Of a stretch of DNA of 64,000 nucleotides, positions 1,638-31,613 are shown in pieces. Origin of the DNA: a virus; the IMG/VR virus record IMGVR_UViG_3300032050_000036, positions 49,499 to 113,498 of that record; one strand, 5' to 3'. A program made the translations under genes and the position numbers. Position 1 is the first letter of the stretch. Each line of letters begins with the position of its first letter. Under the pieces are notes generated by a model. That model did not search any database. It was not told where the DNA came from and saw only the letters and a list, made by a program, of their open reading frames with translations.

Positions 1638-1856
1638 ATGATAGTAAAAACATTAGAAGAGATGGAAAGCATAGTTTCAAATAATAAAAATTTATTTTGG
1701 GACGGATGGACCGTAGTAAGTAGACATCAATCAAATAAAGCAAAATCTTCTAAAGATGGAATATATCTAAATAATAAATGGTATATATCTAAAAGATTTG
1801 AACCGAATAGGGATGGATGGGACATACCAGAAAGACTTATCCATCAATATGCATAA
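1638..1856 (+). CDS. Hypothetical protein
   Basis: AGGAG RBS; LFWDGWTVV motif. Confidence 0.7.
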   Translation: MIVKTLEEMESIVSNNKNLFWDGWTVVSRHQSNKAKSSKDGIYLNNKWYISKRFEPNRDGWDIPERLIHQYA

Positions 1857-2130
1857 AAATAAATGGAAAGATAATGCGTTGTGTTTAGATTATGATACTA
1901 ATTTGTTTTTTGATAAATATGAAGAAGAGGTTTCATTTAGAGGTGCAATAGATAAGTTATGTCTTGAGTGTCCAGTTATAAAGACTTGCTTTGCAGTAGG
2001 AGTATCCGCTAAAGAGTGGGGTGTCTGGGGTGGTGTTTACTTGTCATCTGGAGAAGTCTCAAAAGAGTTTAATGAGCACAAAACAGAAGAAGTTTGGTCT
2101 GATATATGGAAAAAAATGGTGATAGACTAA
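1849..2130 (+). CDS. whiB: WhiB-family Fe-S transcription factor
   Basis: W...ALC...LFF...CLECPVIKTC...GVWGG: four Cys plus G(V/I)WGG turn. Confidence 0.92.
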   Translation: MHKNKWKDNALCLDYDTNLFFDKYEEEVSFRGAIDKLCLECPVIKTCFAVGVSAKEWGVWGGVYLSSGEVSKEFNEHKTEEVWSDIWKKMVID

Positions 2131-7550: not shown

Positions 7551-7970
7551 ATGGTAAGTTCATTTGCATTGGATCTTTTTAAGGATCCATTTTTTATTGG
7601 TTTCAACAGAGAGTTGGACCGTTTTTCTAATATCCATCGTGAGGCAACTCGTCAATCTTATCCACCATATGATGTGGTAAAACTTGATGAGGACACTTAC
7701 AAGTTATCTTTGGCCATTGCTGGTTTCAGCAAGGACGAAGTTGAGGTTTCTGTGGATAATGGAAGTTTAATTATCAAGGGTGAGAAAACCGAAGAAGAGA
7801 ACACTAATGTTCTACATAAGGGTATCGCAACTCGCAAATTCACACGCACCTTTGCTCTTGGAGAGTATATGGAGGTTGATCGTGCTGAAATGGCAGACGG
7901 TATTCTTAGCGTCTTTGTGGAAAGAAACATCCCCGAAGAAAAGAAACCAAAAACTATTAAAATCAAGTAA
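7551..7970 (+). CDS. Small heat-shock protein (Hsp20/IbpA-like)
   Basis: YPPYD, AIAGF, HKGIATRKFTRTF, DGIL. Confidence 0.95.
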   Translation: MVSSFALDLFKDPFFIGFNRELDRFSNIHREATRQSYPPYDVVKLDEDTYKLSLAIAGFSKDEVEVSVDNGSLIIKGEKTEEENTNVLHKGIATRKFTRTFALGEYMEVDRAEMADGILSVFVERNIPEEKKPKTIKIK

Positions 7971-17774: not shown

Positions 17775-17795
17775 TTATCCACAGGTTTATCCACA
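17775..17795 (+). promoter_or_regulatory. Tandem DnaA boxes
   Basis: TTATCCACA at 17775 and 17787. Confidence 0.7.
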
Positions 17796-18327: not shown

Positions 18328-18621
18328 ATATTAATTGTAACACTCTTTATACCGCCCAAACTTTCAGCGATTTTTTGGACGGCGTTCGTAATGTCTTTTT
18401 ATCCTGTGTTTTGCGCTGGGCGCCCCAAATTTGGCGGGGGATAAAAAGATACCGTAATACTACCTATATAAGTATACATAGATACAATGGTTTGACAAAC
18501 AAAATATATTATGCTACATGGTTTGGGAAAAATATGGTTTGATCGTAATCTGGGAAAAATGGTTTGGTATCGTAATGGTTTGTTAACAAAGAAAAATGCA
18601 CCGACCCGTTTTCAGGGCTTT

Positions 18622-18897
18622 TTACGAATTGTCAAATCCTAAAAGCAATTCATCAAGACTAGAGTATCCTGTATCTTTGACACCAAGTGACTCTAAAAAT
18701 AAGTCCCATGTTTCATTTACATATCGTGTAGCCATTTCAGAAGCAGGAATAATTTCTTGTGAAATAGAAAACGCTAATGGCAAACCAATGTCGTTGTATT
18801 CGATAAAATCTTCAAACTCAGACTCACCTTTATAATTTAACCACAAGTCTGCCAAAATATTACATCTGCTAGAAAAGTCTGTATTGGTGTTGCTCAT
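18622..18897 (-). CDS. Hypothetical protein
   Basis: GAGGAG RBS; YNDIGLPLAF. Confidence 0.7.
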   Translation of the reverse strand: MSNTNTDFSSRCNILADLWLNYKGESEFEDFIEYNDIGLPLAFSISQEIIPASEMATRYVNETWDLFLESLGVKDTGYSSLDELLLGFDNS

Positions 18898-19081
18898 TGT
18901 ATTTCTCCTCTTTGTGGTATTGTGCGCTTTCTGCGATAGTGATAAGTCTGTTGTAGGAAACTGTTGGTGCGATTACTGCTAAATACTCGCCTACCTGCTC
19001 AATGTCAAGGCGAAGGTCAGATACGATAGCGGAAATACGCATGGCAACTTTCTCCTCGTCAGTTAGTCTGTGTTTTCTCAT
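18869..19081 (-). CDS. Hypothetical protein
   Basis: AAGGAG RBS before MRKHRL. Confidence 0.7.
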   Translation of the reverse strand: MRKHRLTDEEKVAMRISAIVSDLRLDIEQVGEYLAVIAPTVSYNRLITIAESAQYHKEEKYNEQHQYRLF

Positions 19082-19179
19082 AGTTCTCCTTATAGTCATT
19101 GTATCAAATAAGATGTGGGGGCGCAAGTAGAAGAAAGGTGCTACCTACGCCCCCTTATTACGGAGGGGACCCAACCCTC

Positions 19180-19536
19180 CTAGGATGTGACCGTCGTCAC
19201 AAGACTGTGATAGTTAATAAAATCTTGTATAGTATGTATACCAGTGTCATCAGTTACAGTCTTATTAATTAAATCAATTAGCACGGGATGGTCCATGAAT
19301 CCCAGGTCGTTAGGATTGCAGGCATAAATTCCATACCCCGTCTCGTCCATAATATTATCCTTGATTAGATAACTAACAGCCATACGTACATAGTATGACT
19401 CATCACCTAGGCGTGGTGCTGCATGCTGCAGGGCTGCTGCCAGGTCTGTATACATAGAGTATTCACCCCAATGGCTGTATAAGGCCACTGCCTGGTCTTC
19501 TGACTGCTTAAAAACGAATGTACAACGTGCTCCCAT
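19180..19536 (-). CDS. Hypothetical early protein
   Basis: GAAAGGA RBS; TTGACA-17-TACACT promoter at 19569-19597; LYSHWG. Confidence 0.75.
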   Translation of the reverse strand: MGARCTFVFKQSEDQAVALYSHWGEYSMYTDLAAALQHAAPRLGDESYYVRMAVSYLIKDNIMDETGYGIYACNPNDLGFMDHPVLIDLINKTVTDDTGIHTIQDFINYHSLVTTVTS

Positions 19537-19735
19537 GGTGGGTCCTTTCGATAGTTGGGTTTTCTTCTAGTGTATCAAATTTTAGGTCTAATGTCAATTG
19601 CTCGTACATCATGCCTCCTCAAAAGCAACTACAGATAGATCTGAAAGTACTTCGCTCCAGATCTCTCCCTCTCCAGCCTCTGATTCAACCACAAATTTCA
19701 TATAGGTCCCAGAAGGCTCGTGTATTACTTCAATA

Positions 19736-20032
19736 TTATACTGTGGCATTGTCTTCCCTTTCTGCTATAGCAAATGATAATTGATAAGTTAATTGATAAA
19801 CTGCAGCAAGAGCGTCACATTGTCCCTCCCAGTACTTACGTTCCATAGATTCTAAAGCGTCGCTATAGTCATTGGCTTCCTCTATACGCTGCGCTTCTTC
19901 TAGTTCTAGTTGAGCCTCATACATCCAGTTCTTCATCTCACCATGAATGATATCCAAGGCTGAAATATTTTCATCTACCATATGCTGCAGGTGCTCATCT
20001 AGATTGTAATCTGGATTAAAGTTTGTTTGCAT
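19736..20032 (-). CDS. Hypothetical protein
   Basis: GGAG RBS before MQTNF. Confidence 0.65.
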   Translation of the reverse strand: MQTNFNPDYNLDEHLQHMVDENISALDIIHGEMKNWMYEAQLELEEAQRIEEANDYSDALESMERKYWEGQCDALAAVYQLTYQLSFAIAEREDNATV

Positions 20033-20222
20033 GCTCTTCTCCAATCTGTATAAAATGGCGGGTAGCAATAGCCTGCCCACCCAACCAGTTAAATTCAAAA
20101 TCTAACTCTAGGAACTCTTTAGAATTCATATCTAAATCTTCCATTTGTTTTTCTATCTCTTCTTTGTCTTGCTCAATAGAAATGAGATGTGCTTTCATGT
20201 ATTCAATTAGGTAATTAGACAT
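20016..20222 (-). CDS. Hypothetical protein
   Basis: Coupled ORF. Confidence 0.65.
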   Translation of the reverse strand: MSNYLIEYMKAHLISIEQDKEEIEKQMEDLDMNSKEFLELDFEFNWLGGQAIATRHFIQIGEEHANKL

Positions 20223-20955
20223 CGACTTGGTCCATTCTATAGTTGGGTATATATTCCTCAGTTAAGTATACTTTATGGATGTCGCAATCTGCAACTGCTT
20301 CTAAGTCTGCCTCGCCTAGATAGTGACAAGAATCACAGATTTCTCCACAATCGTTATCACAGTATTCTAATGTATTAATTTCATCACAATCTCTACATTT
20401 GTTTTCATAGTTAGAATCTTGAATGATAACTCCAGCAAGATATTCTGTCTCACCACCCCAACCTGTTTCTTCCTCATAAGACAAGGTAATGTTTAGGTTT
20501 GGATAATCAAAAGATAGTCTTTGTATAGCAGGATGTGGCGGAGACCAAGCGGTATTAAACTTATACTGTAAAGAGGTTTCGTCTTCTTCGTATAACTCAG
20601 TCTCAGGATAATCTTCTCCGTCACGAACTGATACATCCCACTTAGTTCCCCACTCACGAACATTAAAGTCATACCAGCATTTACCCTTAAACTGTAATTG
20701 CTCTGCCATGGGCAGGGTATGGTCAGGTTGCTTCATATAATCTTCATCACTAATACCTGCTTGTATATGATTATAGATATTATGGAAAGCAAATATAGGG
20801 TTAGAGTATGAAGTCTCAGTTAACTCCATTTGTCTTGTTTCCATATTAAACTGGTCATGCATTTTAGTAAATGGTTGGTTAAGTTGTGCCTTAACCTTAG
20901 CAATGTCTTGTTCATTGCCTTCGATAGTTAGATAGTTGTAACACCAATTTGGCAT
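20215..20955 (-). CDS. DUF1281/Api92-like ferredoxin-domain protein
   Basis: MPNWCYN, WGTKWD, FNTAWSPP; TTGACA-17-TAGAAT promoter. Confidence 0.8.
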   Translation of the reverse strand: MPNWCYNYLTIEGNEQDIAKVKAQLNQPFTKMHDQFNMETRQMELTETSYSNPIFAFHNIYNHIQAGISDEDYMKQPDHTLPMAEQLQFKGKCWYDFNVREWGTKWDVSVRDGEDYPETELYEEDETSLQYKFNTAWSPPHPAIQRLSFDYPNLNITLSYEEETGWGGETEYLAGVIIQDSNYENKCRDCDEINTLEYCDNDCGEICDSCHYLGEADLEAVADCDIHKVYLTEEYIPNYRMDQVDV

Positions 20956-21170
20956 TATGGGTCCTTTCTGTGGGTTCTTGTATTATTCTAGCAAATTAGG
21001 TAGGGTATGTCAAACACGTCCCTCTGCCAATAGTCCTAGTAAGAAGTCCTCTAGATCTCTAAGTACTGATACATCTTCCTCTGCAAACTTAGTATCCTTA
21101 ATATGGTGATGGATAGAATAATTTAATATCATAGCCATATTTTCTACCTGCTCTGTTGTATATCCTAGCA

Positions 21171-21401
21171 TTATGCATTCTCCTTTTCCATAAGAATATT
21201 ATAGGCGGCAAGGCTGGTTATGTCAATATTTATTTCTCTACCAGGGTATTTATTAATTAGGAAATTAACTGCATCTCCTGCTGATTTAAAGTCACTATAG
21301 TTTTCTGAATATCCATATCCTTGTATAGTTATTTCCCAGCAATCAATCCCACCAGGTGAGACAGAGTATTCCATTTCATATATTTGTGCATTTAGGGTCA
21401 T
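21171..21401 (-). CDS. Hypothetical protein
   Basis: TTGATT-17-TATGAT promoter immediately upstream. Confidence 0.65.
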   Translation of the reverse strand: MTLNAQIYEMEYSVSPGGIDCWEITIQGYGYSENYSDFKSAGDAVNFLINKYPGREINIDITSLAAYNILMEKENA

Positions 21402-21545
21402 GGTTTAATCATATCAAAATCTAGGGGAAAAATCAAGTTCTACGTAATAAAAAAAATTCATGACATTTTTAGTCGGTTACGTAATAAAAGTTTTTGATGA
21501 TATTTTTAGTCGGCCACTTTTTTGATCTTTTGTCAAATAAAAAAT

Positions 21546-21573
21546 TGAGCAGTTTATACTCATGCTCAGGAGT
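21546..21573 (-). ncRNA. H-type pseudoknot motif copy 2
   Basis: ACTC-CTGAGCAT-GAGT-ATAAAC-TGCTCA. Confidence 0.7.
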
Positions 21574-21582
21574 TGAATTAGA

Positions 21583-22590
21583 TTAAACTAATTCTAAAGT
21601 GTTGCGAACAACATTTAGCAAACGATTTTTTTCTGCTGTGATAGCAGGGTCAAAACCACTTGAACCCATTAGGATTGATTCAGTAAGACCACGCTTACCA
21701 CCACGATACCAATCGATTCTTTCTGTGAGTGCGTTCCAAGCACCCCAAGCAGTATTGGCAATCATGCCATTGAATTCGCCTGTGTAAATATCATTGATTA
21801 AATCAACTTTATTTGTCCACTTAGAAAGTGCGCCTTTCTTAGTTTCATCAGGCTTAGGATACGCAGCCAAAACAATATCATTGAATTGTTGCGCTGTGAT
21901 TTCTTTTTCAATCATGAGTTGCGCCATGATAGAAAATTCGTCCATGTAAGCATTAGCAACAGCAAGAGCCTCACGAGCCTGTTGAACTTTACCCTCAGCA
22001 GATTGTGTGTGACGAATCTTGAATGATTGCTTTACGCCATTGTTTTTCTTAGTGCGACCAAGAGCAACAGCGAGAGTGTTAGCGCATACAACACGAACAG
22101 GTGTCACGCTTGCTTGAATAGCAACAGAACCATCGTGTGATGTATTAACAAGAAGATAAGTCTTAACCTTATCCGCTACACCATTAGGGTCAAGAACAGT
22201 CTCACGCTCAAGAGCAAGAGAACCGAAAACAACACGACCACTACGCAATGAGCCAGCAGTCTCCCAACGACCTCCGCCATCAAGAATTGCATCACCAAAA
22301 GTGAATAGTTCTTCATTTTGTAGTGGGACATAGCGTTCACCAACAACGCCTAAGACATCAACTTGATTTGCGGTGAATGGATTATCACGCACAACATATT
22401 GATAAGATTTATCAGATGTAAGAGTAGATGGGATTTCTACATCTTCAAGACGAACATTCCAACCATCAAGGTTAGCGAGTTCCAACATTTTTTCAGTAGT
22501 GACTTCCTCCTGAAAAACAGTTCCTAAACCATGCCAAGCAGGTTCACGGAATGAAGCGAAAGAATTAGCAGATTCTAATTCATGAGCCAT
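21583..22590 (-). CDS. DUF932 (TIGR03299-like) phage/plasmid protein
   Basis: MAHE..PAWHGLG, ETAGSL, NTSHDGS, PVRVVCANTL; GAAAGGA RBS. Confidence 0.88.
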   Translation of the reverse strand: MAHELESANSFASFREPAWHGLGTVFQEEVTTEKMLELANLDGWNVRLEDVEIPSTLTSDKSYQYVVRDNPFTANQVDVLGVVGERYVPLQNEELFTFGDAILDGGGRWETAGSLRSGRVVFGSLALERETVLDPNGVADKVKTYLLVNTSHDGSVAIQASVTPVRVVCANTLAVALGRTKKNNGVKQSFKIRHTQSAEGKVQQAREALAVANAYMDEFSIMAQLMIEKEITAQQFNDIVLAAYPKPDETKKGALSKWTNKVDLINDIYTGEFNGMIANTAWGAWNALTERIDWYRGGKRGLTESILMGSSGFDPAITAEKNRLLNVVRNTLELV

Positions 22591-22621
22591 ATTTATTTCC
22601 TTTCTATTTTTAGTTATTCTT

Positions 22622-22643
22622 ATCTTAGCACAACGGGCTGACA
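22622..22643 (-). promoter_or_regulatory. PafBC/RecA-NDp-type promoter
   Basis: TGTCAG-cccgttgtgc-TAAGAT. Confidence 0.65.
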
Positions 22644-22733
22644 AAAGCAAATCCTGGAATTTGGGCGTTTTGATCGTAACTACGTAAAACGGACATTTTA
22701 GGACAAAACGGGCCGACCACTTTTTTGAGGAAG

Positions 22734-22763
22734 TGAGCAGTTTACGTGGACGTGCTCAGGTCC
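22734..22763 (-). ncRNA. H-type pseudoknot motif copy 3
   Basis: GGAC-CTGAGCAC-GTCC-ACGTAAAC-TGCTCA. Confidence 0.7.
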
Positions 22764-22843
22764 CTCACGGTCTCTTTGAAAGAAAGGATGAAAGAAGAGA
22801 TCCGTGCACATTGCGTGGCCTTTCATGAACCACGCAAATTTAT

Positions 22844-23254
22844 TTAGATGTCGATGTTGTCGACGCTTGCAGAAACATGTGTTACATGATTCATATCATA
22901 TGTGATTGCTTCAAAATCAATATCATTAATTATTGATTCTGCGTCTTCACCTGCAGGAACTTCAATTGTTAAATAGTAAGTTACGGTAACCTCTGCTTCA
23001 ACTTCCTTGGTAAGTTCGAATGCACCAATCTCAGAAAGTTCAACAGCCTGCTCTTCAGTGATGTTGCCATTCTCTAGATTCTCCATGGTCCATTCATGTA
23101 GACCAGTTGACATTGCATTTAGTGCAGCAGCAGTGCTAAAGTCACGCTGTACAACACGAGCATGAGACTCTTCTACAGTCTTTACTCGCTCCTCTAGTTG
23201 CTTGATTGTATTACGAAGATATTCCTCCGTAGCATTAATTACATTAGTTTCCAT
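22844..23254 (-). CDS. Hypothetical early protein
   Basis: GAAAGGA RBS. Confidence 0.7.
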   Translation of the reverse strand: METNVINATEEYLRNTIKQLEERVKTVEESHARVVQRDFSTAAALNAMSTGLHEWTMENLENGNITEEQAVELSEIGAFELTKEVEAEVTVTYYLTIEVPAGEDAESIINDIDFEAITYDMNHVTHVSASVDNIDI

Positions 23255-23516
23255 CTGTGATATCCTTTCCTAGACTATCAAATTCGTTTATTTCATTAAT
23301 CATAGCATCCATTTCACTTTCTGTCAATAAAACATTAGTGACCAATGTTGCTGTAAGAGATGAGAGTAGCGCAGAATATTTAAATAACATCTGTGCGAAA
23401 TCATTATCTGACATTTCATTTCTTGCGTGTAGTAGTTGTGAAGCAATAGCCATTGACATATCGTCATGGACTGCGTCTTTAGTTGCTTCTTGTATTGCTA
23501 TAGCGGTTGCTATCAT
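23244..23516 (-). CDS. Hypothetical early protein
   Basis: GAAAGGA RBS before MIATA. Confidence 0.7.
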   Translation of the reverse strand: MIATAIAIQEATKDAVHDDMSMAIASQLLHARNEMSDNDFAQMLFKYSALLSSLTATLVTNVLLTESEMDAMINEINEFDSLGKDITDGN

Positions 23517-23542
23517 CTTAGTTTCCTTTCTTTCTAATACTA

Positions 23543-23564
23543 AGTTTAGCATTGGGTTCTGACA
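23543..23564 (-). promoter_or_regulatory. PafBC/RecA-NDp-type promoter
   Basis: TGTCAG-aacccaatgc-TAAACT; TTGACA also upstream. Confidence 0.65.
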
Positions 23565-23581
23565 TTTGTCAAGTTGGAGGT

Positions 23582-23609
23582 GGGGCAGTTTTACATCATA
23601 CCCAGGATG
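23582..23609 (-). ncRNA. H-type pseudoknot motif copy 4
   Basis: CATC-CTGGGTAT-GATG-TAAAAC-TGCCC; compensatory change in stem 2. Confidence 0.7.
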
Positions 23610-23735
23610 ATCCCTCTAGGAATACCCGCAAGGACTTTCGTCACTTCATTTGTTAGCGGGGCTTATCAAGAGAGAAACCTGTTGTGGCGGGGGTAATTAC
23701 GATTACACACCCGAAACCCGCCACAATTATTTAGA

Positions 23736-24158
23736 TTACAAGTATCTTGCGATAGCGTTGTAAGTAGAAGTAGAAACTACTTCCTCATCTGTCATCTTGA
23801 GAATACGAATTGCGTTCTCAATTTCATCTTTTTGCTCACGATACTGCCACTCATGAATAGACACATAGTCTTTCTTGGGTTCATCAGGTAGCGTGATAGT
23901 TCCAGCAGGTAGAGAGAAAGATACTTGGATTTCGTTATTGTATCTCTTATGAGCAGATAAGTCCTCTGCCTTAGCAATTTTATCAAGTGCTAATTTAGCG
24001 ACTTCCTTGTTCCAAGCCTTTACTGCCTTGTCGTGCTTTGCTTCGTTCGCCTCTTGTGAAGCGAAGTCTTTATTTAGTTTATCAAGTGCGCTTTCTAGTG
24101 CCTTGATAACCTTAGTTGTAGCGATTTTTACATTTATCGCTTTGCCATTTCTAGCCAT
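23736..24158 (-). CDS. Hypothetical early protein
   Basis: GAAAGGA RBS; TTGATT-17-TAGACT promoter. Confidence 0.75.
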   Translation of the reverse strand: MARNGKAINVKIATTKVIKALESALDKLNKDFASQEANEAKHDKAVKAWNKEVAKLALDKIAKAEDLSAHKRYNNEIQVSFSLPAGTITLPDEPKKDYVSIHEWQYREQKDEIENAIRILKMTDEEVVSTSTYNAIARYL

Positions 24159-24221
24159 TTATTTATCCTTTCTTAGTGGGTTGTTATTTATAGTCTAGCA
24201 TTTTTACTGCTAGAAATCAAG

Positions 24222-24251
24222 TGAGCAGTTTTAGTAGCCATGCTCAGGGCT
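24222..24251 (-). ncRNA. H-type pseudoknot motif copy 5
   Basis: AGCC-CTGAGCAT-GGCT-ACTAAAAC-TGCTCA. Confidence 0.7.
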
Positions 24252-24267
24252 TTTCCTGTATTAGGAA

Positions 24268-24435
24268 TTACTTTGCTGTCCAAGTTGTCCAGCGAGGTGA
24301 GCCATTGACATCAAGTTTTACACGAACGCTTGTTCCGTCTTGATTTGGCTTGATTTCGGTAATAACGCCTGTCACCTTTGACTTCTGTGAGGTGTAGGTG
24401 TCGCCTACCTTGTAAGTTGCTGTTGCTACTGCCAT
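24268..24435 (-). CDS. Small SH3-like early protein (paralog A1)
   Basis: AAGGAG RBS; TYKVGD..SKVTG.I; TTGACA-17-CATAAT promoter. Confidence 0.7.
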   Translation of the reverse strand: MAVATATYKVGDTYTSQKSKVTGVITEIKPNQDGTSVRVKLDVNGSPRWTTWTAK

Positions 24436-24534
24436 TTCTTTCTCCTTTGTTAGTTGGTTGTTATTACTTGTATTATTATGACATTTTTGAGAGATAATGT
24501 CAAGCCGAAACCTGACATTTCTCACATTTTGAGA

Positions 24535-24702
24535 TTAGTGTGTTTTTACCATAGCAAATCTAGTTTGATTATTTGCCAAGCGAAGCATGACCTTAGTTAC
24601 ATTTTGACGCATTGGAACGAACTTCTCAATACGACCTGTAACACCTGTCTTGCTGGTAGTAAATAAATCTCCTACCTGATAAGTGTATCCGCCTAGTGTC
24701 AT
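24535..24702 (-). CDS. Small SH3-like early protein (paralog A2)
   Basis: GAAAGGA RBS; TYQVGD..TGVTG.I. Confidence 0.7.
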   Translation of the reverse strand: MTLGGYTYQVGDLFTTSKTGVTGRIEKFVPMRQNVTKVMLRLANNQTRFAMVKTH

Positions 24703-24924
24703 TTGCGTTTTTCCTTTCTGTTTGGGTCTTAGTATTAGTTTAGCATAAAAATACAAGAAATACAATTCGGGGAGCGTTTTGGGGGTCTTTTTAATGTGAT
24801 CTTAATTACAGGGTCGTAACTTGACAAATTGGGTTTTGCGGGCCGACCACTTTTGCGGGGGATTTATTGAGAAATAAAAAAGTAAAGTATTAACCATGCT
24901 ATGAATAAATACTCTACACGCATT

Positions 24925-25644
24925 TTATTTTTTACTCGCACTAAATACAATATCTGCTTTATTGTGAACACACAATCCACATGTCACACAAGCAGAGCCA
25001 TTAGTAGAAATAAGCGGTATACGTTTTGCATTTTCAGGACACTTAGCGCCAGGTTTCGAAATTAATTCTTTCATAGTTTCTTGACCTACCGCAAAATTTT
25101 GTGCAAGGTATGCCATACGTACACCGTGTTGTTGTTTTAACTCTACGGCTGTTTTGATATTCTCACTATCTGCAGAGAAATATAAACTAAGGTTATCAAT
25201 ATTCTTTAGCATTTCTGCAGCAATCTTTACACGGGTGTATACCCAAAATTGTACGTCAGGATTATTTAAGATTACGTGTTTCCATGCGAATGCGTATTCC
25301 TTACTAAAGAAATCGCCATCCCAGTGAATGCGAAATAACTTAGGAGCCTCTCGCTTATCACAATCTTTCTTGAAATCATTAATCATATCTTGCAGCAGAT
25401 TTTCCATAGTATCATGGTCTGCGTCTTTTAATAAATTCCAGTTATGGAGTAGAGTTTCTCTTACTCCCTTATAGACTTTTTCAAGTTTTCCTGCGTAGCA
25501 TACCTTAGAGCATACAGAGGTCTCACCAGGACAGGAGTAAGCCTTGCCACTAGGCAATCCAAAAGTGTTGGCAATTGTTGGGGTCTTTCCGTTTCTTGAG
25601 ACAGCATTGGCCACCTTCCTATCATTAGAGCGTTTTAATTTCAT
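24925..25644 (-). CDS. Gene product 88 (GP88)-like Cys-rich protein
   Basis: SCPG...CSKVCYA, FRIHWDGDF, FWVYTR, C..CGLC. Confidence 0.8.
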   Translation of the reverse strand: MKLKRSNDRKVANAVSRNGKTPTIANTFGLPSGKAYSCPGETSVCSKVCYAGKLEKVYKGVRETLLHNWNLLKDADHDTMENLLQDMINDFKKDCDKREAPKLFRIHWDGDFFSKEYAFAWKHVILNNPDVQFWVYTRVKIAAEMLKNIDNLSLYFSADSENIKTAVELKQQHGVRMAYLAQNFAVGQETMKELISKPGAKCPENAKRIPLISTNGSACVTCGLCVHNKADIVFSASKK

Positions 25645-25889
25645 TGCTCATCCCTTTCTTTCATTGATAATTCTATCATTTTTTTATTGCTTTGTCTAGT
25701 ATAAACACGCTTGCTATTTACGGCAGAGGCTGCGTTAGATCTACGCAATTCTTGAATGCGCCTTAATTCTTCTTTACTCTTCCTAAACATAATTTAATAA
25801 TATCATAAACAAACAAAAATCACAAATTTAGGGAGGTTCTACTTAATCTACGTAAAACGGACATTTGGTGCAAATTGGTCGGGCGGTTT

Positions 25890-26117
25890 TTACTCTACAA
25901 AAACATACCATTCAATTTTTGTATCATCAAGAACAAAGTATTCTTCTTCATCATCAAAGTCATCTGCTAAAACTAAATTAAATCCTTCTTTAGTTTCGCT
26001 AATTTCTTTTACAGTTAAATACTGATCTTCAATTTTAATTAGATCACCTTCCGCCAATTGGTTTGGCAGAAGATAATCAGCAAAGACAAGTTCCATACTC
26101 ATCATTGTAGCAGACAT
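25890..26117 (-). CDS. Hypothetical protein
   Basis: Coupled ORF. Confidence 0.6.
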   Translation of the reverse strand: MSATMMSMELVFADYLLPNQLAEGDLIKIEDQYLTVKEISETKEGFNLVLADDFDDEEEYFVLDDTKIEWYVFVE

Positions 26118-26327
26118 TTAGCGAATGCTCACCTCTCCACTACGATAAAAAGTTTTTGTATACATTTTTCCTGTTGGGTCTGATAAGTTATAAGTTGCGT
26201 ATTCTTTAGCATCACCAAAGTCTACGCATTTAGTCCAAGCATCTACCGCTTCAAGCATATCTGATACTCGCAGGGTATTTACCAATTCTCCGTCATACAA
26301 AGTAGTAACTGAGTAAGTGTATTCCAT
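26118..26327 (-). CDS. Hypothetical protein
   Basis: GAGGA RBS before MEYTY. Confidence 0.65.
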   Translation of the reverse strand: MEYTYSVTTLYDGELVNTLRVSDMLEAVDAWTKCVDFGDAKEYATYNLSDPTGKMYTKTFYRSGEVSIR

Positions 26328-26328
26328 T

Positions 26329-26628
26329 TTAGTATTCCTCTCTTTCAATAATCCACGCATCTAGGTGGTGTGCTTCAATAATAGCATGAGCAGGGGCTAA
26401 ATCGCTACCCTTCCAAGATATGCCTTCAGGAAGTTTTATGGGTAAATCCCAAAGTCCAGCATCATTTACCGCATCTATAGCCTCAATACAAGGTCTAATC
26501 ATAGTTTTAGGAACGGGCGGGTAGTGATTAGCAGATAAGTGTATTCCTATCTGAGTTTCAATATCTAAGTGTATTCCCATATCCTCTAATACACCACTAG
26601 CCATTTCGTTAGCCATATTACTTCCCAT
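26329..26628 (-). CDS. Hypothetical protein
   Basis: HL..NHYPPVP, HHLD.W. Confidence 0.7.
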   Translation of the reverse strand: MGSNMANEMASGVLEDMGIHLDIETQIGIHLSANHYPPVPKTMIRPCIEAIDAVNDAGLWDLPIKLPEGISWKGSDLAPAHAIIEAHHLDAWIIEREEY

Positions 26629-26840
26629 TATCGTGCTTCTCCGCTCATTAGTAGTTCAGGCTCACTTATCAAGCCATTATCAAAAATAACATCTCCGTCA
26701 TCATCTAGGATTAGTCCATAAGGATTACAAATACAATCCTCAAAATCGTAGTCCTCGCCATTACCAAAGTAATCAACGCCTCTACCATTACAAAAATCGC
26801 AGTTTCTAATCTGCCTTAGTGCGTATTCCAATTTATCCAT
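26628..26840 (-). CDS. Small Cys protein (paralog C1)
   Basis: CDFCNGRG...CIC; GAAAGGA RBS. Confidence 0.7.
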   Translation of the reverse strand: MDKLEYALRQIRNCDFCNGRGVDYFGNGEDYDFEDCICNPYGLILDDDGDVIFDNGLISEPELLMSGEAR

Positions 26841-26868
26841 TTTTTATTTCCTTTCTTTCAATACTGAA

Positions 26869-26890
26869 ATCCTATCAGATAGGGCTGACA
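26869..26890 (-). promoter_or_regulatory. PafBC/RecA-NDp-type promoter
   Basis: TGTCAG-ccctatctga-TAGGAT. Confidence 0.65.
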
Positions 26891-26932
26891 AAATCAAATC
26901 TGACACGCCCTGTCCGATATGTCCGTTTTGTC

Positions 26933-27430
26933 CTACCATGAGGACTGATAATAGAATGATAGATTTTCAAAGTCAGGTCTATCAATAAGAGGCTGTAATT
27001 GATTAATGGTATCCATTAGGTCTTTCCAATACCATTCGTCAATATCAGTACCGCCAAAGAAAAATCCTTCTCTAGGTGGCAGGATATTAGGGTCTTTATT
27101 GGTAATCGCTAGAGTACAGTCATTTACCAATTGTTTTAGGTGCTTATGCGCTACATAGTACTCACCGCAGTCATCTTCGCCACGCTGTACAGTATTAACA
27201 AACCAATTGTGTATCTGATTACACTTGCGCCAATAGGCTACATTTACAGATACATCTACGCCATAGATACTTTCTTCATCTACAAGCGTATCAACACCAG
27301 CAGCATTTACTACATCATTCCATTGTGGAATGGTAGCCTCTGAATATTTAGTATCGCTATCTCGATCTAATTTACTCCAGTCAATTTTATTAATGTGCTT
27401 ACGAGCACTTAAATACATATCTAATCCCAT
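26933..27430 (-). CDS. Conserved phage hypothetical protein
   Basis: MGLDMYL..YWRK.NQIH.WF..GFFFG..YQSSW. Confidence 0.8.
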   Translation of the reverse strand: MGLDMYLSARKHINKIDWSKLDRDSDTKYSEATIPQWNDVVNAAGVDTLVDEESIYGVDVSVNVAYWRKCNQIHNWFVNTVQRGEDDCGEYYVAHKHLKQLVNDCTLAITNKDPNILPPREGFFFGGTDIDEWYWKDLMDTINQLQPLIDRPDFENLSFYYQSSW

Positions 27431-27448
27431 TTTATTTATTTTCCTTTC

Positions 27449-27649
27449 TTATAGGTCTGATACTTTTACAGCAATAGTAGCCCATTTAGAGCCATTGAAA
27501 CGAATTGAATAGGCTTGATAATCTGTACCTACCCATACATCATCACGCTTTTCAGCAAAGTTTATTTCTCCACCCTGATATTTACGGGCAAAAGAAGTAG
27601 GTCTATAATACTGGCCTACAAGTAAATCTTCAATTGAATAACTTCTCAT
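27449..27649 (-). CDS. Small early protein (paralog B1)
   Basis: YSIEDLLVGQYYR; GAAAGGA RBS. Confidence 0.7.
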   Translation of the reverse strand: MRSYSIEDLLVGQYYRPTSFARKYQGGEINFAEKRDDVWVGTDYQAYSIRFNGSKWATIAVKVSDL

Positions 27650-27768
27650 TGAATTTCCTTTCTTTATTTTCAGGCTTCTAGCCTATCATTTTTATCTTAT
27701 AAAATCAAATCGACACGCCGTAATTTAAGAAAAAATTCGGGTGTGTTTTTAATCACATCTTAACAGCC

Positions 27769-27789
27769 TGTGGATAACTCTGTGGATAA
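27769..27789 (-). promoter_or_regulatory. Tandem DnaA boxes
   Basis: TGTGGATAA at 27769 and 27781. Confidence 0.7.
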
Positions 27790-27792
27790 GTG

Positions 27793-27814
27793 GCCGACGC
27801 TGTCGGGCGTGTCG
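27793..27814. repeat. 22-bp dispersed repeat (second copy 29653-29674)
   Basis: GCCGACGCTGTCGGGCGTGTCG identical at both sites. Confidence 0.9.
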
Positions 27815-27992
27815 GAATTAGTTGAAAGTTGAACTATTGTTTAGCAGCGCAAGCAAAACATTTTAGATCTGCGACAAAAATTCTACCGCAGACCTCGCAT
27901 GTTTTAAATTTAGTTTTCTTTTGTCGCAAGTTTTATCGTGTAATAAATAGAAGCGATAAGAAAAATTTGAACAAGTGTAGTTAGAAATCTAG

Positions 27993-28184
27993 TCATGCGA
28001 TAATTCCTAACTCATCAACACCGCAAGCCTTTTCAAATCTTGCTTTATCGAATAATTCATTTTTGGTTCCAAAATAAGTTGAGAAACCTTCCACCAAATC
28101 CTCATAGACCTGCGGATGAATTTCATCTTTTACATCCGCAAGAATTGAAGCGATAGCCTTGAAGTGTGTTTTAGTTAGCGACAT
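27993..28184 (-). CDS. Small conserved phage protein
   Basis: T..HF..IA.....N..FD..RF..AC. Confidence 0.7.
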   Translation of the reverse strand: MSLTKTHFKAIASILADVKDEIHPQVYEDLVEGFSTYFGTKNELFDKARFEKACGVDELGIIA

Positions 28185-28187
28185 TTT

Positions 28188-28439
28188 TTATTCCTGTTCT
28201 GCTAGTAGAATATAAGAATGAGTTGCGCCTTCATTTATTCTTTCAAGTTCAGCAAGCAATTCATCACGAGTAAAGAGTGAAGCGTCTCCAATTAAATCTC
28301 TAACTGCTTCAATATTCATCTGAGTAAATACTGGAGCAGGCACATTTTTAAGCATGCCTACGAATGGCGAATGGTCAGCGATACGAGAAACGAAATTTAC
28401 TCCGTTTGCGGTAAATGGGTAGTCTGTATAGTTTTTCAT
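28188..28439 (-). CDS. Hypothetical early protein
   Basis: AAAGGA RBS; TTGACA-17-TACAAT promoter. Confidence 0.7.
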   Translation of the reverse strand: MKNYTDYPFTANGVNFVSRIADHSPFVGMLKNVPAPVFTQMNIEAVRDLIGDASLFTRDELLAELERINEGATHSYILLAEQE

Positions 28440-28552
28440 TTATTTATTTTCCTTTTCTTTCGTTTTTACTATTGTAGCGATTTTCTCTAAGTTTGTCAAT
28501 TGTTGCGCTTTGCGCTGGCTCTCAACAAGAGCCTTGAATTCATCTAATTTCA

Positions 28553-28753
28553 TTAGTCATTATTCCTAACTGCTACTGTGCGGTAGGTATAACGACCAAC
28601 CTCACTACGAACACGAACAAGATACGCTTCAGCGTTTTCATACCATACGCAAGCAGGGTGTTTTTCTGCTTCTACAATTTCTCCAACAAGAGAATTGGAA
28701 CGATAAGTTTTGCCTACTAATAGGCTTGGGATTGAGTATAAATTAGCACTCAT
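28553..28753 (-). CDS. Small early protein (paralog B2)
   Basis: YSIPSLLVGKTYR. Confidence 0.7.
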   Translation of the reverse strand: MSANLYSIPSLLVGKTYRSNSLVGEIVEAEKHPACVWYENAEAYLVRVRSEVGRYTYRTVAVRNND

Positions 28754-28785
28754 TTTTTTACCTTCTTTCATTTTCTTACCCTGTA

Positions 28786-28807
28786 AGTTTAGCATTTTTA
28801 TCTGACA
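28786..28807 (-). promoter_or_regulatory. PafBC/RecA-NDp-type promoter
   Basis: TGTCAG-N10-TAAACT. Confidence 0.65.
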
Positions 28808-29096
28808 AAATCAAATCCAAAATGCGGATAAATCGGACATTTTTTAAATTATTTTTGTGGGAAAAATCACATCCCACGTAACACGACACGCCCGAGTACG
28901 GGGGTCGGCGAGTTTTATCAGCATGTCAAGATCAACATACCGCTTTTTATTTTTATTTATCAAACTCAAACTTTATTTTTACATTGTCTACCATGAATGG
29001 CAAAGTGTTATCAAGCAACGCCTGAATATTTTCAGTTAGATAGTCGTTATCTGTTTGATAAGTTATTGTGATTTTATAGTCCATTATTTATTTTCC

Positions 29097-29306
29097 TTAG
29101 TCTAAGAAAACTGCGCCTTTAGCAGTTTTATGATTAGCACATACATTACCACGAGGAATCTCTACATGGCAAACAAAGCAAAGCATTTTTACTTTTGCTT
29201 TATTTATGATTGCCCATTCAAGGTCAATCTTAGTTTCAACACTAGCATTTTCTAGCGATACCCAACCAGCACCGCTTTTATTCATTTCAAATATTTCAAT
29301 AGACAT
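29097..29306 (-). CDS. Small zinc-finger protein
   Basis: CFVC...CANH. Confidence 0.6.
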   Translation of the reverse strand: MSIEIFEMNKSGAGWVSLENASVETKIDLEWAIINKAKVKMLCFVCHVEIPRGNVCANHKTAKGAVFLD

Positions 29307-29308
29307 TA

Positions 29309-29503
29309 TTACAACACCCAACTTTCATTTGTATAAGATAACCACTCTCCGAGTGTCATCAAACCTTTATACTCATTACACTTTCCGCAGAAAGTATTTC
29401 CTGCGTAGTCATCACAAAAAACGCAAACGATTTGATTTGCTTCCTCATCGGAAACATTTGCGAGAGTAATCTCTCGGATTTCATATTTATTTATTGTAGT
29501 CAT
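29309..29503 (-). CDS. Small zinc-finger protein
   Basis: CVFC...CGKC; GAAAGG RBS. Confidence 0.7.
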   Translation of the reverse strand: MTTINKYEIREITLANVSDEEANQIVCVFCDDYAGNTFCGKCNEYKGLMTLGEWLSYTNESWVL

Positions 29504-29538
29504 TTTAGACCACCTTTCTTTTTTTATCTAATACGAGT

Positions 29539-29560
29539 ATTCTAGCAGGGGGGTCTGACA
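29539..29560 (-). promoter_or_regulatory. PafBC/RecA-NDp-type promoter
   Basis: TGTCAG-acccccctgc-TAGAAT. Confidence 0.7.
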
Positions 29561-29593
29561 TTTTTGGGGGTATAAAACGGACATTTTGGACTT

Positions 29594-29625
29594 TGTGAGG
29601 CACATCACATGTGACGTAAGCCACA
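29594..29625. promoter_or_regulatory. Two adjacent CRP/GlxR-type sites
   Basis: TGTGA-ggcaca-TCACA then TGTGA-cgtaag-CCACA. Confidence 0.65.
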
Positions 29626-29786
29626 CGTAAAAAGGTACAAAACGGACATTTAGCCGACGCTGTCGGGCGTGTCGCAGCGAGGTAGAAAATGTGTCCTAAT
29701 TCACACACGACACGCCGTGTTAGGACTTGACTTTTTGAGATTTATGTGATAGGATACTATTGTATTTTTAGAAAGGATATGTAGTT

Positions 29787-29954
29787 ATGTTATCAGATAA
29801 AACAATAGAAAAAATCGTTTATGAGTATCAGCATGGAGGCGTTCAGGCATATCACCCTGAAATCTCACTATCTGAGAGAAAGGCTCTCCTCAAGTACCTA
29901 TGGAGCCTACCATCTAAGTGTGCTCCAGAGTGTGAGGTAACTCACAAAAATTGA
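29787..29954 (+). CDS. Small early protein (55 aa, not in track)
   Basis: GAAAGGA RBS; TTGACT-17-TAGGAT promoter. Confidence 0.65.
   Translation: MLSDKTIEKIVYEYQHGGVQAYHPEISLSERKALLKYLWSLPSKCAPECEVTHKN
29931..29946. promoter_or_regulatory. CRP/GlxR-type site
   Basis: TGTGA-ggtaac-TCACA. Confidence 0.65.
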
Positions 29955-29984
29955 TGGACGACACGCCCGAAAAACAGGGCAAAA

Positions 29985-30006
29985 TGTCAGTGGTAGGGTA
30001 TAGCAT
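29985..30006 (+). promoter_or_regulatory. PafBC/RecA-NDp-type promoter
   Basis: TGTCAGTG-gtagggta-TAGCAT. Confidence 0.75.
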
Positions 30007-30042
30007 ACAGGTATTAGATAGAAAAAAAGAAAGGAAGTCAAA

Positions 30043-30195
30043 ATGACTAACACATACGAAAAACTTCACCCAATCTGCTCTACATGCGGACATGTCAATT
30101 CTTTTGAAAGTTGGGAAATGATTTGCCCAACAGATAAGACATACAAGACACGAGAGGTCTTGACCTTCACAGAGTCAGGCTACTATGTGAAGTAA
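30043..30195 (+). CDS. Small Cys protein (50 aa, not in track)
   Basis: GAAAGGA RBS; CSTCG. Confidence 0.65.
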   Translation: MTNTYEKLHPICSTCGHVNSFESWEMICPTDKTYKTREVLTFTESGYYVK

Positions 30196-30201
30196 ATCAC
30201 A
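30186..30201. promoter_or_regulatory. CRP/GlxR-type site
   Basis: TGTGA-agtaaa-TCACA. Confidence 0.65.
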
Positions 30202-30229
30202 CAAAAGGGGTAGCCACAGACCCCCAAAA

Positions 30230-30251
30230 TGTCAGTGGCAGGGGATAGAAT
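30230..30251 (+). promoter_or_regulatory. PafBC/RecA-NDp-type promoter
   Basis: TGTCAGTG-gcagggga-TAGAAT. Confidence 0.75.
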
Positions 30252-30279
30252 AAGATTACTAAATAGAAAGGATAACTAA

Positions 30280-30456
30280 ATGAAAACACTTAGTTACACA
30301 GCAGAAAAAGATAACACTCTTGTTTCTGTATCAAATCGCCTTATGGTTAGCGAGTATCAAATAAATAACCTACTAGATAGCCTAGTAGCAAATGGCTACA
30401 CTATCCTCACCACAGAGGTGAATGACGGAGATTACTCCCCACATTGGCAAGGCTAA
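30280..30456 (+). CDS. Small early protein (58 aa, not in track)
   Basis: GAAAGGA RBS. Confidence 0.65.
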   Translation: MKTLSYTAEKDNTLVSVSNRLMVSEYQINNLLDSLVANGYTILTTEVNDGDYSPHWQG

Positions 30457-30460
30457 CCCT

Positions 30461-30482
30461 TGTCAGTGCTACCTGATACACT
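30461..30482 (+). promoter_or_regulatory. PafBC/RecA-NDp-type promoter
   Basis: (T)TGTCAGTG-ctacctga-TACACT. Confidence 0.75.
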
Positions 30483-30506
30483 TACATTATTAGAAAGGAT
30501 AAATAA

Positions 30507-30623
30507 ATGATAAACACACTAACTAGAATAAACTGCGATGAGTGCCACGGGCACGGAGTTATCTTTTGGGGTAACGATGAGGATTATGATGTAGAACCTT
30601 GCGAGTGTGTGGCTAATGGCTAA
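30507..30623 (+). CDS. Small Cys protein (paralog C2, 38 aa)
   Basis: GAAAGGA RBS; CDECHGHG..GNDEDYD..CEC. Confidence 0.65.
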   Translation: MINTLTRINCDECHGHGVIFWGNDEDYDVEPCECVANG

Positions 30624-30730
30624 CTACTCAGCAGAACAACTACGCAGAAAGGCTCACCTTGCTAGAGGTGGAACACTTGCCAACTATGACCGCTCACATT
30701 ATGATAAAATAACAATAGGAGAAAATAAAA

Positions 30731-30928
30731 ATGATACCAATCAGACTAACAACAACTAACGGAGAGAGTAAGACAATGAACCTTCCAAATAGAGAAACAG
30801 TAGAAACTTTTATTACTACTTTCTCTAGTTCATTACCATTAGGCTATGCTGTATGTATAGACGCACCTCTCATTGGAATACACAATGGGTGGTTATTTGG
30901 AAAAAAGGAGCCAGCAGTACAAAAGTAA
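30731..30928 (+). CDS. Hypothetical protein
   Basis: AGGAG RBS. Confidence 0.65.
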   Translation: MIPIRLTTTNGESKTMNLPNRETVETFITTFSSSLPLGYAVCIDAPLIGIHNGWLFGKKEPAVQK

Positions 30929-30941
30929 ATCCTCCCCCTAG

Positions 30942-30991
30942 TAGTGAGCACAGAAAATAGATCCTTCAAAGTTGTGCTCACTATTTTTTTT
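30942..30991 (+). terminator. Intrinsic terminator closing rightward early arm
   Basis: TAGTGAGCAC/GTGCTCACTA stem then T8. Confidence 0.75.
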
Positions 30992-31081
30992 GTTTTATTT
31001 TTATTATTTCTGTATCATACATATTAGCAAAAAATTCAGATTTTTGTCATTTTGGTTTTGGGTATGCTGTATAATAAATAC

Positions 31082-31471
31082 ATGATATTCCATAAGCACA
31101 TGCTAGTAAACGCAAAAGTGTCTAATCCCATACGATCAGAAGATGAGGCGGTAGAGTTTCTAAAAGACTTAGTTCGCAGGGTAGACATGAAGATCATTAA
31201 AGGACCATTTGCTTCATATGTAGATGCTCCTGGCAACAAAGGTTTAACAGCAATCGTTATGATTGAAACAAGTCACATAGCATTTCACATCTGGGACGAG
31301 GTAGATCCAGGATTACTACAATTCGACCTATACACATGCGGTAGCCTAGATAAATTCACGGTACTTAATGCATTAAATCAAAGATTTGACATTAAGGCCA
31401 TTGACTGGGTTATCTATGACAGAGAGAATGGTTTCGTAGTTGAAGACATCTATATGTCGGAGAATCGCTAA
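31082..31471 (+). CDS. speD: S-adenosylmethionine decarboxylase proenzyme-like
   Basis: GLTAIVMIETSHIAFHIW, DLYTCG. Confidence 0.8.
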   Translation: MIFHKHMLVNAKVSNPIRSEDEAVEFLKDLVRRVDMKIIKGPFASYVDAPGNKGLTAIVMIETSHIAFHIWDEVDPGLLQFDLYTCGSLDKFTVLNALNQRFDIKAIDWVIYDRENGFVVEDIYMSENR

Positions 31472-31613
31472 TGTCAGAATCGCAAAAAATTTCAGAAATT
31501 GATAATATGGGTCGTGAAAAGTTTTGGGAAGATTTAGGAAGACCAGAAAACGATGGTTTGGCACTTAAGATATTTAAAGAAGAATGTTGCGAAAACTGTT
31601 CTTGTAAAAATAA

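Follow-up and report, generated by a model that had tools for sequence, protein, structure and literature searches.

What reads a promoter in which a conserved box stands close upstream of the -10 element, in several cases with no -35 element beside it? The question is posed by a 64-kb stretch of phage DNA (64,000 nt, here called the window), which comprises bases 49499-113498 of the complete 113,498-bp virus record IMGVR_UViG_3300032050_000036 of IMG/VR, a record with repeated ends. The motif TGTCAG-N10-TAnnnT, where N10 is a spacer of 10 nt, occurs eight times in the window, and all of these copies lie within 22622-30482 (7.9 kb), each aimed into a small gene. An earlier note had proposed that they are early promoters of the kind used by PafBC, a DNA-damage regulator of actinobacteria, and that they wire the early genes of the phage to the host sensor of single-stranded DNA (ssDNA). 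The eight sites that it listed were recovered, with position, strand and exact spacing all correct. That host PafBC reads them, by the mechanism termed sigma adaptation, is in our estimate probable at about 0.6.

The TGTCAG box and its promoters

In dinucleotide-shuffled versions of the window the mean number of matches to the motif is 0.85 and the maximum is 3, and none of 100 shuffles reaches eight. Hexamers with one mismatch show no enrichment (17 versus 29 in the reversed control), and therefore the hexamer is strict. Permitting G at its fifth position gives no extra matches in the window. A scan of the whole genome, which the earlier note had suggested together with one of relatives, adds a single copy (G000:C1:15419-15440, plus strand), located outside the window and within a 1458-aa tail gene. 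Its spacer AGATAAAAATG is common to promoter 28786 and to a box-less promoter near window position 27700, and the copy may be an internal promoter or a relic of recombination. The eight copies in the window are listed below and are referred to by their first coordinate; those termed hybrid have both a box and a -35 element.

22622..22650, minus strand: hybrid promoter, -35 TTGCTT (22650-22645), box (22643-22638), TG-extended -10 TAAGAT (22627-22622); the gene behind it (21583-22590, minus) encodes DUF932 (Pfam DUF932 / phrog_1221)
23543..23572, minus strand: hybrid promoter, TTGACA, 18-nt spacer, box (23564-23559), TG-extended -10 TAAACT; genes 23244-23516 (90 aa), then 22844-23254 (minus)
26869..26897, minus strand: hybrid promoter, -35 TTGATT, box (26890-26885), TG-extended -10 TAGGAT; gene 26628-26840 (a 70-aa CxxCxGxG mini zinc finger) and three more small genes to 25890 (minus)
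28786..28814, minus strand: hybrid promoter, -35 TTGATT, box (28807-28802), TG-extended -10 TAAACT; genes 28553-28753 (66 aa), then 28188-28439 and 27993-28184 (minus)
29539..29560, minus strand: box promoter, no -35 (CCAAAA there), TG-extended -10 TAGAAT, the first leftward promoter of the divergent region; genes 29309-29503 (64 aa) and 29097-29321 (minus)
29985..30006, plus strand: pure box promoter, TGTCAGTG-N8-TAGCAT, no -35, no TG; drives 30043-30195 (50 aa)
30230..30251, plus strand: pure box promoter, TGTCAGTG-N8-TAGAAT, no -35, no TG; drives 30280-30456 (58 aa)
30461..30482, plus strand: box promoter, TGTCAGTG-N8-TACACT, no -35, TG extension; drives 30507-30623 (a 38-aa CxxCxGxG mini zinc finger)

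Each promoter points into a gene (8/8), as had been claimed. The Shine-Dalgarno (SD) sequence, of the AGAAAGGA type, begins 11-23 nt past the -10 element and the start codon lies 25-37 nt past it, so that the earlier figure of 15-40 nt for the SD was roughly right. The lack of a -35 element in the three plus-strand copies, all of the form TGTCAGTG-N8-TAnnnT, had also been seen before, and is shared by 29539 on the minus strand. The other four copies carry TTGNNN at 17-18 nt, as TTGNNT with a 17-nt spacer in 22622, 26869 and 28786, and as TTGACA with an 18-nt spacer in 23543. With a TG-extended -10 in six of the eight (22622, 23543, 26869, 28786, 29539 and 30461), 29985 and 30230 are the only window copies with neither the -35 nor the extension, and in these two the box is the sole upstream element. 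Directly upstream of promoter 26869 there is a second TGTCAG and two CGGACA repeats.

The same architecture is found in relatives of the phage, of which IMG/VR holds more than 200 at 70-99% DUF932 identity, all those sampled having 33-39% GC. Counts over this family were taken from nested sets of loci: a first set of 80 DUF932-anchored loci (1.35 Mb), and a larger set that adds 80 loci from a pattern scan and stretches of the record G203. The first set contains 469 matches, compared with 17 in the reversed control. Allowing the spacing to vary gives 451 matches at N10 and 2-63 at each of the other spacings from N6 to N15. When single bases of the hexamer are changed at fixed spacing in the larger set, TGTCAG is present in 661 unique copies versus 11 and TGTCGG in 79 versus 7, and the sixteen other single-base variants are at background. 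The 10-nt spacer varies freely, save that about 70% of family copies have TG ahead of the -10. TTG is missing at the -35 position in 243 of 367 unique copies, and 90 of the 367 are without the TG extension too; no negative association between box and -35 was seen (28% versus 31%). The divergent box-bearing records G203-G206 contain 10-13 promoters that read aaTGTCAGTGG-N7-TAnnnT, most of them lacking a -35. Among G203-G206 and G208 kinship is shown for G203 (syntenic) and G204 (DnaE, 76%) only. Alignment of the orthologous DUF932 promoter from 56 distinct relatives reveals the -35 and the extended -10 in 56/56, and the box in 42/56.

Host PafBC as the candidate reader

The nature of the host bears directly on which proteins could bind the box. 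The GC content of the phage is 35% (27-41% along the window), and GenBank contains no phage with close DNA similarity. In protein comparisons its nearest relatives are the Streptomyces phages of the Stanwilliamsviridae (BE/BK types), with 56% identity in DnaE and 54% in DUF932. The phage also encodes a WhiB-family protein that scores 43.8 bits, above the Pfam cut-off.

1798..2130, plus strand: gene of the WhiB family (start codon uncertain), which marks an actinobacterial host

The host is taken to be actinobacterial because of this WhiB protein and the Streptomyces phage relatives, and the phage, judged by its genes, is an actinophage. The same two observations reject a low-GC Firmicute host, which the GC content and the AGAAAGGA sites had suggested. 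A relative of the WhiB protein lies on contigs binned with an uncultured Aquiluna metagenome-assembled genome (MAG) and with a Lake Mendota MAG, and from their IMG identifiers we take the samples of the relatives to be lake metagenomes. The host is thus very probably a freshwater actinobacterium, and the hosts of the family probably rank with the most abundant bacteria of lakes. M. smegmatis was rejected as the host, as was any Mycobacterium, by the 35% GC, by the lack of a near phage in GenBank and by the presumed freshwater origin of the relatives' samples.

PafBC promoters, of the RecA-NDp or recA P1 type, are known solely as the chromosomal DNA-damage regulon of actinobacteria. In the sigma adaptation described in mycobacteria, PafBC, a heterodimer of WYL-domain proteins, inserts between region 4 of sigma-A and the DNA; the motif derived from chromatin immunoprecipitation is tGTCgg(N10)tA(N3)T, with the helix-turn-helix of PafB contacting positions -23 to -28 and no -35 element (PMC8635444). 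PafBC is activated by ssDNA (PMC11804915). The phage box matches this motif in its sequence, in the exact N10 and in its A/G degeneracy at position 5; only that change is tolerated there, and the position therefore equals the R of the published TGTCRG. The likeness to the PafBC consensus that the earlier note drew is borne out on all three counts (PMC8635444). The two kinds of promoter also have in common the placing of TGTCRG at -28 to -23, 10 nt before TAnnnT, the frequent absence of the -35, and the presence of the same box before recA in the candidate hosts discussed below. The phage sites differ in lying on a lytic phage genome, arrayed before tiny genes, in using A far above G, in that half of the window copies retain a -35, in that a TG following the box is found in a minority, and in having an uncultured host.

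No WYL, HTH_PafC or sigma-70 region 2 domain was found in a six-frame HMM search of the complete phage genome, which answers in the negative whether the phage has a WYL gene. A reader of this type is therefore not supplied by the phage element itself. Candidate hosts were taken as 1.3-1.4 Mb actinobacterial genomes of the class of the Aquiluna MAG. In the MAG a tandem pair of wHTH-WYL-WCX genes precedes tatC, the pafB-pafC-tatC synteny of mycobacteria. WYL matches are present in 201/201 sampled genomes of its class, a tally that includes the unpublished G008, G023, G028, G031, G036 and G191, on which no single claim depends. PafC-type (HTH_PafC) proteins are encoded in four single-contig genomes of 1.3-1.4 Mb. 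In these four genomes recA has the box 200 nt upstream, as the same 22-mer in three of them; carD has it too (4/4), and so do genes for a DnaQ-like exonuclease and a C5 methylase. One of the four (G126, 1.44 Mb) has a 34-kb stretch of 45% GC (G126:C1:438001-472000, L143+L144) with nine boxes, mostly TGTCAGTG, and genes for GmrSD, SNF2 helicase, C5 methylase, Hsp70-like, TPR and trypsin-like proteins; the stretch resembles a defence island placed under the control of the ssDNA alarm. The presence of pafBC in hosts, which the earlier note had left to be checked, holds for candidate hosts only, which have pafBC-like genes and a box upstream of recA.

The following scheme would accommodate these features. 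The eight sites would serve as functional promoters for the tiny genes of a host-takeover-like block, and all would be read by the RNA polymerase of the host with its housekeeping sigma-A. At -28 to -23 the TGTCAG box would offer a docking site to host PafBC, which on binding would replace or supplement the -35 contact, the -10 and the -26 element then being sufficient. PafBC would be activated once infection or replication exposes ssDNA in the cell. The pure promoters (29985 and 30230, and less strictly 29539 and 30461) would fire mainly when PafBC is active, and the hybrid promoters (22622, 23543, 26869 and 28786) would fire at once through their -35 elements, to be boosted later. PafBC as the reader, the time of firing and the identity of the host are what we infer here.

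A second host input is suggested by palindromes of the Crp/GlxR type, TGTGA-N6-TCACA, of which there are four in the window and none in the reversed control.

29594..29609, no strand assigned: Crp/GlxR-type palindrome TGTGA-N6-TCACA, upstream of promoter 29539 (minus)
29931-29946: further Crp/GlxR-type palindrome, upstream of promoter 29985 (plus)
30186-30201: further Crp/GlxR-type palindrome, upstream of promoter 30230 (plus)
19186-19201: further Crp/GlxR-type palindrome

Three of the four lie upstream of the -35-less promoters 29539, 29985 and 30230. Across the family (loci L012-L224) an upstream palindrome is found at 275 of 791 box promoters (35%) versus 92 of 691 box-less canonical promoters (13%). 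The palindrome centres are sharply phased at 52, 62 and 72-73 nt from the -10 of the box promoters, the pattern that would be expected of a class I activator bound on one face of the helix. There is no Crp-type gene in the phage; one scores over the cut-off in two of the three candidate-host genomes searched. The phased palindromes make it more likely that the family builds its promoters from host sites, and since Crp-type sites are phased upstream, PafBC need not be the sole activator. Host Crp-type sites on the same helical face would provide the second input at about one third of the box promoters of the family. The broader idea that this abundant family of lake phages switches its variable accessory early genes by the ssDNA alarm of the host, through sigma adaptation by PafBC, together with host Crp, is tentative, and we think it rather less likely to be right than wrong.

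A number of observations weigh against PafBC as the reader. A usable -35 is present in four of the eight window copies, and the TG-extended -10 found in 71% of family copies can alone substitute for a -35. The box has been lost in 14 of the 56 DUF932 orthologues, where it is replaced by degenerate or unrelated hexamers; since the -35 is retained, the box is an add-on that is dispensable there. The TG that follows the hexamer in the mycobacterial consensus is present in about a quarter to a half of the copies, and many have ACC or CCC. One ACCCC-type site in a candidate host stands before a SAM-IV riboswitch and not before a damage gene. The TGTCRG-N10 box is absent from the Streptomyces relatives, and is thus unused by phages whose hosts have PafBC. 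Arrays of the box were found in one phage family only; the IMG/VR pattern scan gave none in unrelated families, every array whose kinship could be checked being a member's, and single chance-level matches elsewhere. Lastly, the presence of PafBC is read from candidate hosts that were picked by size and class. The proposal that the early genes are wired to host PafBC is thus favoured by the motif match, the lack of WYL and HTH_PafC in the phage and the pafBC-like genes of candidate hosts, but is weakened by the box being sometimes dispensable.

If the broader idea of a switch through host PafBC and Crp is right, it would give the first demonstrated case of a virus exploiting sigma adaptation, and a new way for a virus to sense the state of its host with no regulator of its own. 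The ssDNA alarm would be tied to the timing of phage genes or to counter-defence, and countermeasures of the phage would be co-induced with host defences, the same alarm driving recA and the defence-like island in candidate hosts. The many copies of the box on replicating DNA might also drain PafBC. No report of phage promoters of this type was found in full-text literature searches. As cited in PMC12848934, a 2025 paper ties pafBC to mycobacteriophage resistance. The promoters are in addition compact natural ones with which sigma adaptation might be studied.

Other explanations of the box

The alternative that survives best, though we consider it improbable, is that a protein made by the phage or carried in its virion, and belonging to no recognizable family, reads the box and re-aims sigma-A, in which case the likeness to PafBC would be mimicry or coincidence. 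It would be consistent with the restriction of the arrays to a single phage family and their absence from the Streptomyces relatives. Canonical box-less promoters in the same region could express such a protein first, and most of the early open reading frames (ORFs) are of no known family. The protein would nevertheless have to match the hexamer, the R degeneracy and the 10-nt spacing by chance, and searches disclosed no WYL, HTH_PafC, MotA, AsiA, sigma or other Pfam DNA-binding domain. MotCF and AsiA had no match at E <= 1 in the phage or in G203-G206 and G208, none of 48 early ORFs matched a Pfam transcription factor or DNA-binding family, and an Lsr2 gene was sought in the phage and not found.

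The middle promoters of phage T4 are the natural comparison for such a reader. There the MotA box at -30 takes the place of the -35, set a short and constant distance from a -10 of the host type, by AsiA/MotA sigma appropriation, and in both phages these promoters are mixed with ordinary early promoters in a block of phage genes. The difference is that the lake phage has no MotA or AsiA homologue and that its box equals the site of a host activator, so that the adaptor is probably host-made. In the host-takeover modules of SPO1 and T5, which lie close to an end of the genome, tiny genes follow arrays of strong promoters for the host sigma factor. These modules resemble the present region in their dense units of promoter and small gene, many with canonical -35 and -10 elements, and differ in that the SPO1 and T5 promoters have no extra activator box.

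Less probable again is that the box binds PafBC or another protein in order to act as a sponge, with replicating phage DNA absorbing PafBC and so damping the damage and defence response of the host, or as the operator of a repressor that silences early promoters. Titration would pay, given that a candidate host has the same box before defence-like genes (GmrSD, SNF2 helicase and methylase), and the hybrid promoters need no activator. Yet a decoy requires no fixed distance to the -10, and the spacing is exact; each copy is correctly oriented before a gene, and many promoters of the family consist of the box and the -10 alone. BrxR and CapW are ssDNA-sensing WYL regulators of defence islands, mostly repressors of host systems (PMC9122601, PMC11662680). 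In both settings WYL proteins couple a damage signal to phage-related genes, and the defence-like island of a candidate host has PafBC-type boxes; the difference is that the PafBC-type sites described here are on the phage.

Similarly unlikely is that these are plain sigma-A promoters with no trans-acting reader, in which the hexamer has been kept by descent in copied cassettes or by direct contact with the polymerase. The extended -10 is common, the spacer AGATAAAAATG is shared by 28786, the promoter near 27700 and the copy inside the tail gene, and some orthologues have lost the box and retained the promoter, all of which would fit. In most copies, however, the N10 spacers differ while the hexamer is invariant, and descent fails to explain a mutation spectrum in which only the A/G change is tolerated. 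Plain sigma-A promoters would also leave the 90 of 367 copies with neither -35 nor TG to be accounted for, and we know of no sigma-A contact at -28 to -23.

A host regulator other than PafBC with a similar half-site is very unlikely: the early region is rich in host-type boxes (the Crp palindromes, and the DnaA boxes, GGCGTGTC and AAAWCGGACAT described below), but TGTCCG, the core of AAAWCGGACAT, is unused at -26 (4 versus 10 in the control), and no other regulator with this geometry is known to us. On the same count the neighbouring ATGTCCG box was rejected as a form of the TGTCAG site.

The putative early region and its other sites

The promoters that we provisionally assign to PafBC lie in a block of small genes, which is called early from its gene content.

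18600..31600, no strand assigned: putative early (host-takeover-like) region, about 45 ORFs, most of them tiny, whose AGAAAGGA ribosome sites are strong; many promoters
29727..29755, plus strand: canonical box-less promoter, TTGACT, 17 nt, TG-extended TAGGAT; drives the first rightward gene, 29787-29954

The block holds about ten canonical -35/-10 promoters that have no box, and several types of box are restricted to it. It matches a leftward block of small genes with a DUF932 homologue in the Streptomyces phage Riptide. The early regions of the Stanwilliamsviridae (BE/BK types: Riptide and BillNye) have in common with it homologous DnaE and DUF932, the block of small genes and the AAAWCGGACAT box, but they have no TGTCRG-N10 box and use promoters of their own, TTGNNN with TAGACT. 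The most conserved early genes (23736-25641) are located behind box-less promoters in the window. Box promoters, that of DUF932 excepted, stand before small genes that vary more. The trend is a soft one, which fits accessory or counter-defence functions and is not evidence for them.

The early block holds 13 copies of the AGAAAGGA ribosome site and the other 100 kb a single one, both strands counted; from this concentration it follows that the early genes use a distinct and very strong SD. Two pairs of paralogues are encoded in the block. The CxxCxGxG mini zinc-finger proteins (26628-26840 and 30507-30623) are both behind box promoters, and a pair of 55-aa proteins (24268-24435 and 24535-24702), which by eye have a beta-rich look and are 78-87% conserved across the family, are behind canonical promoters.

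The 11-mer AAAWCGGACAT occurs seven times in the phage genome (control 2), at window positions 22686, 25854, 26919 (minus), 28830, 29574, 29639 and 34735 (minus). Riptide (L093) has 12 copies, against 0 in the control, in its early region with the terminal repeat, and these frequently precede the -35 by 9 nt. The 11-mer is thus a candidate regulatory site common to very distant relatives. The sequence GGCGTGTC(G) has seven copies in 26902-29967 and was called confined to the early region, with a further copy at 56449; across 80 related loci there are 278 matches versus 2 in the control. Its opposite strand contains GACAC, which we take to be a WhiA-type core. Perfect DnaA boxes TTATCCACA form close pairs at 17775/17787 and 27769/27781 (minus), with others at 7751, 8002 and 62469 (control 0); these may mark a replication origin or be sites that titrate DnaA.

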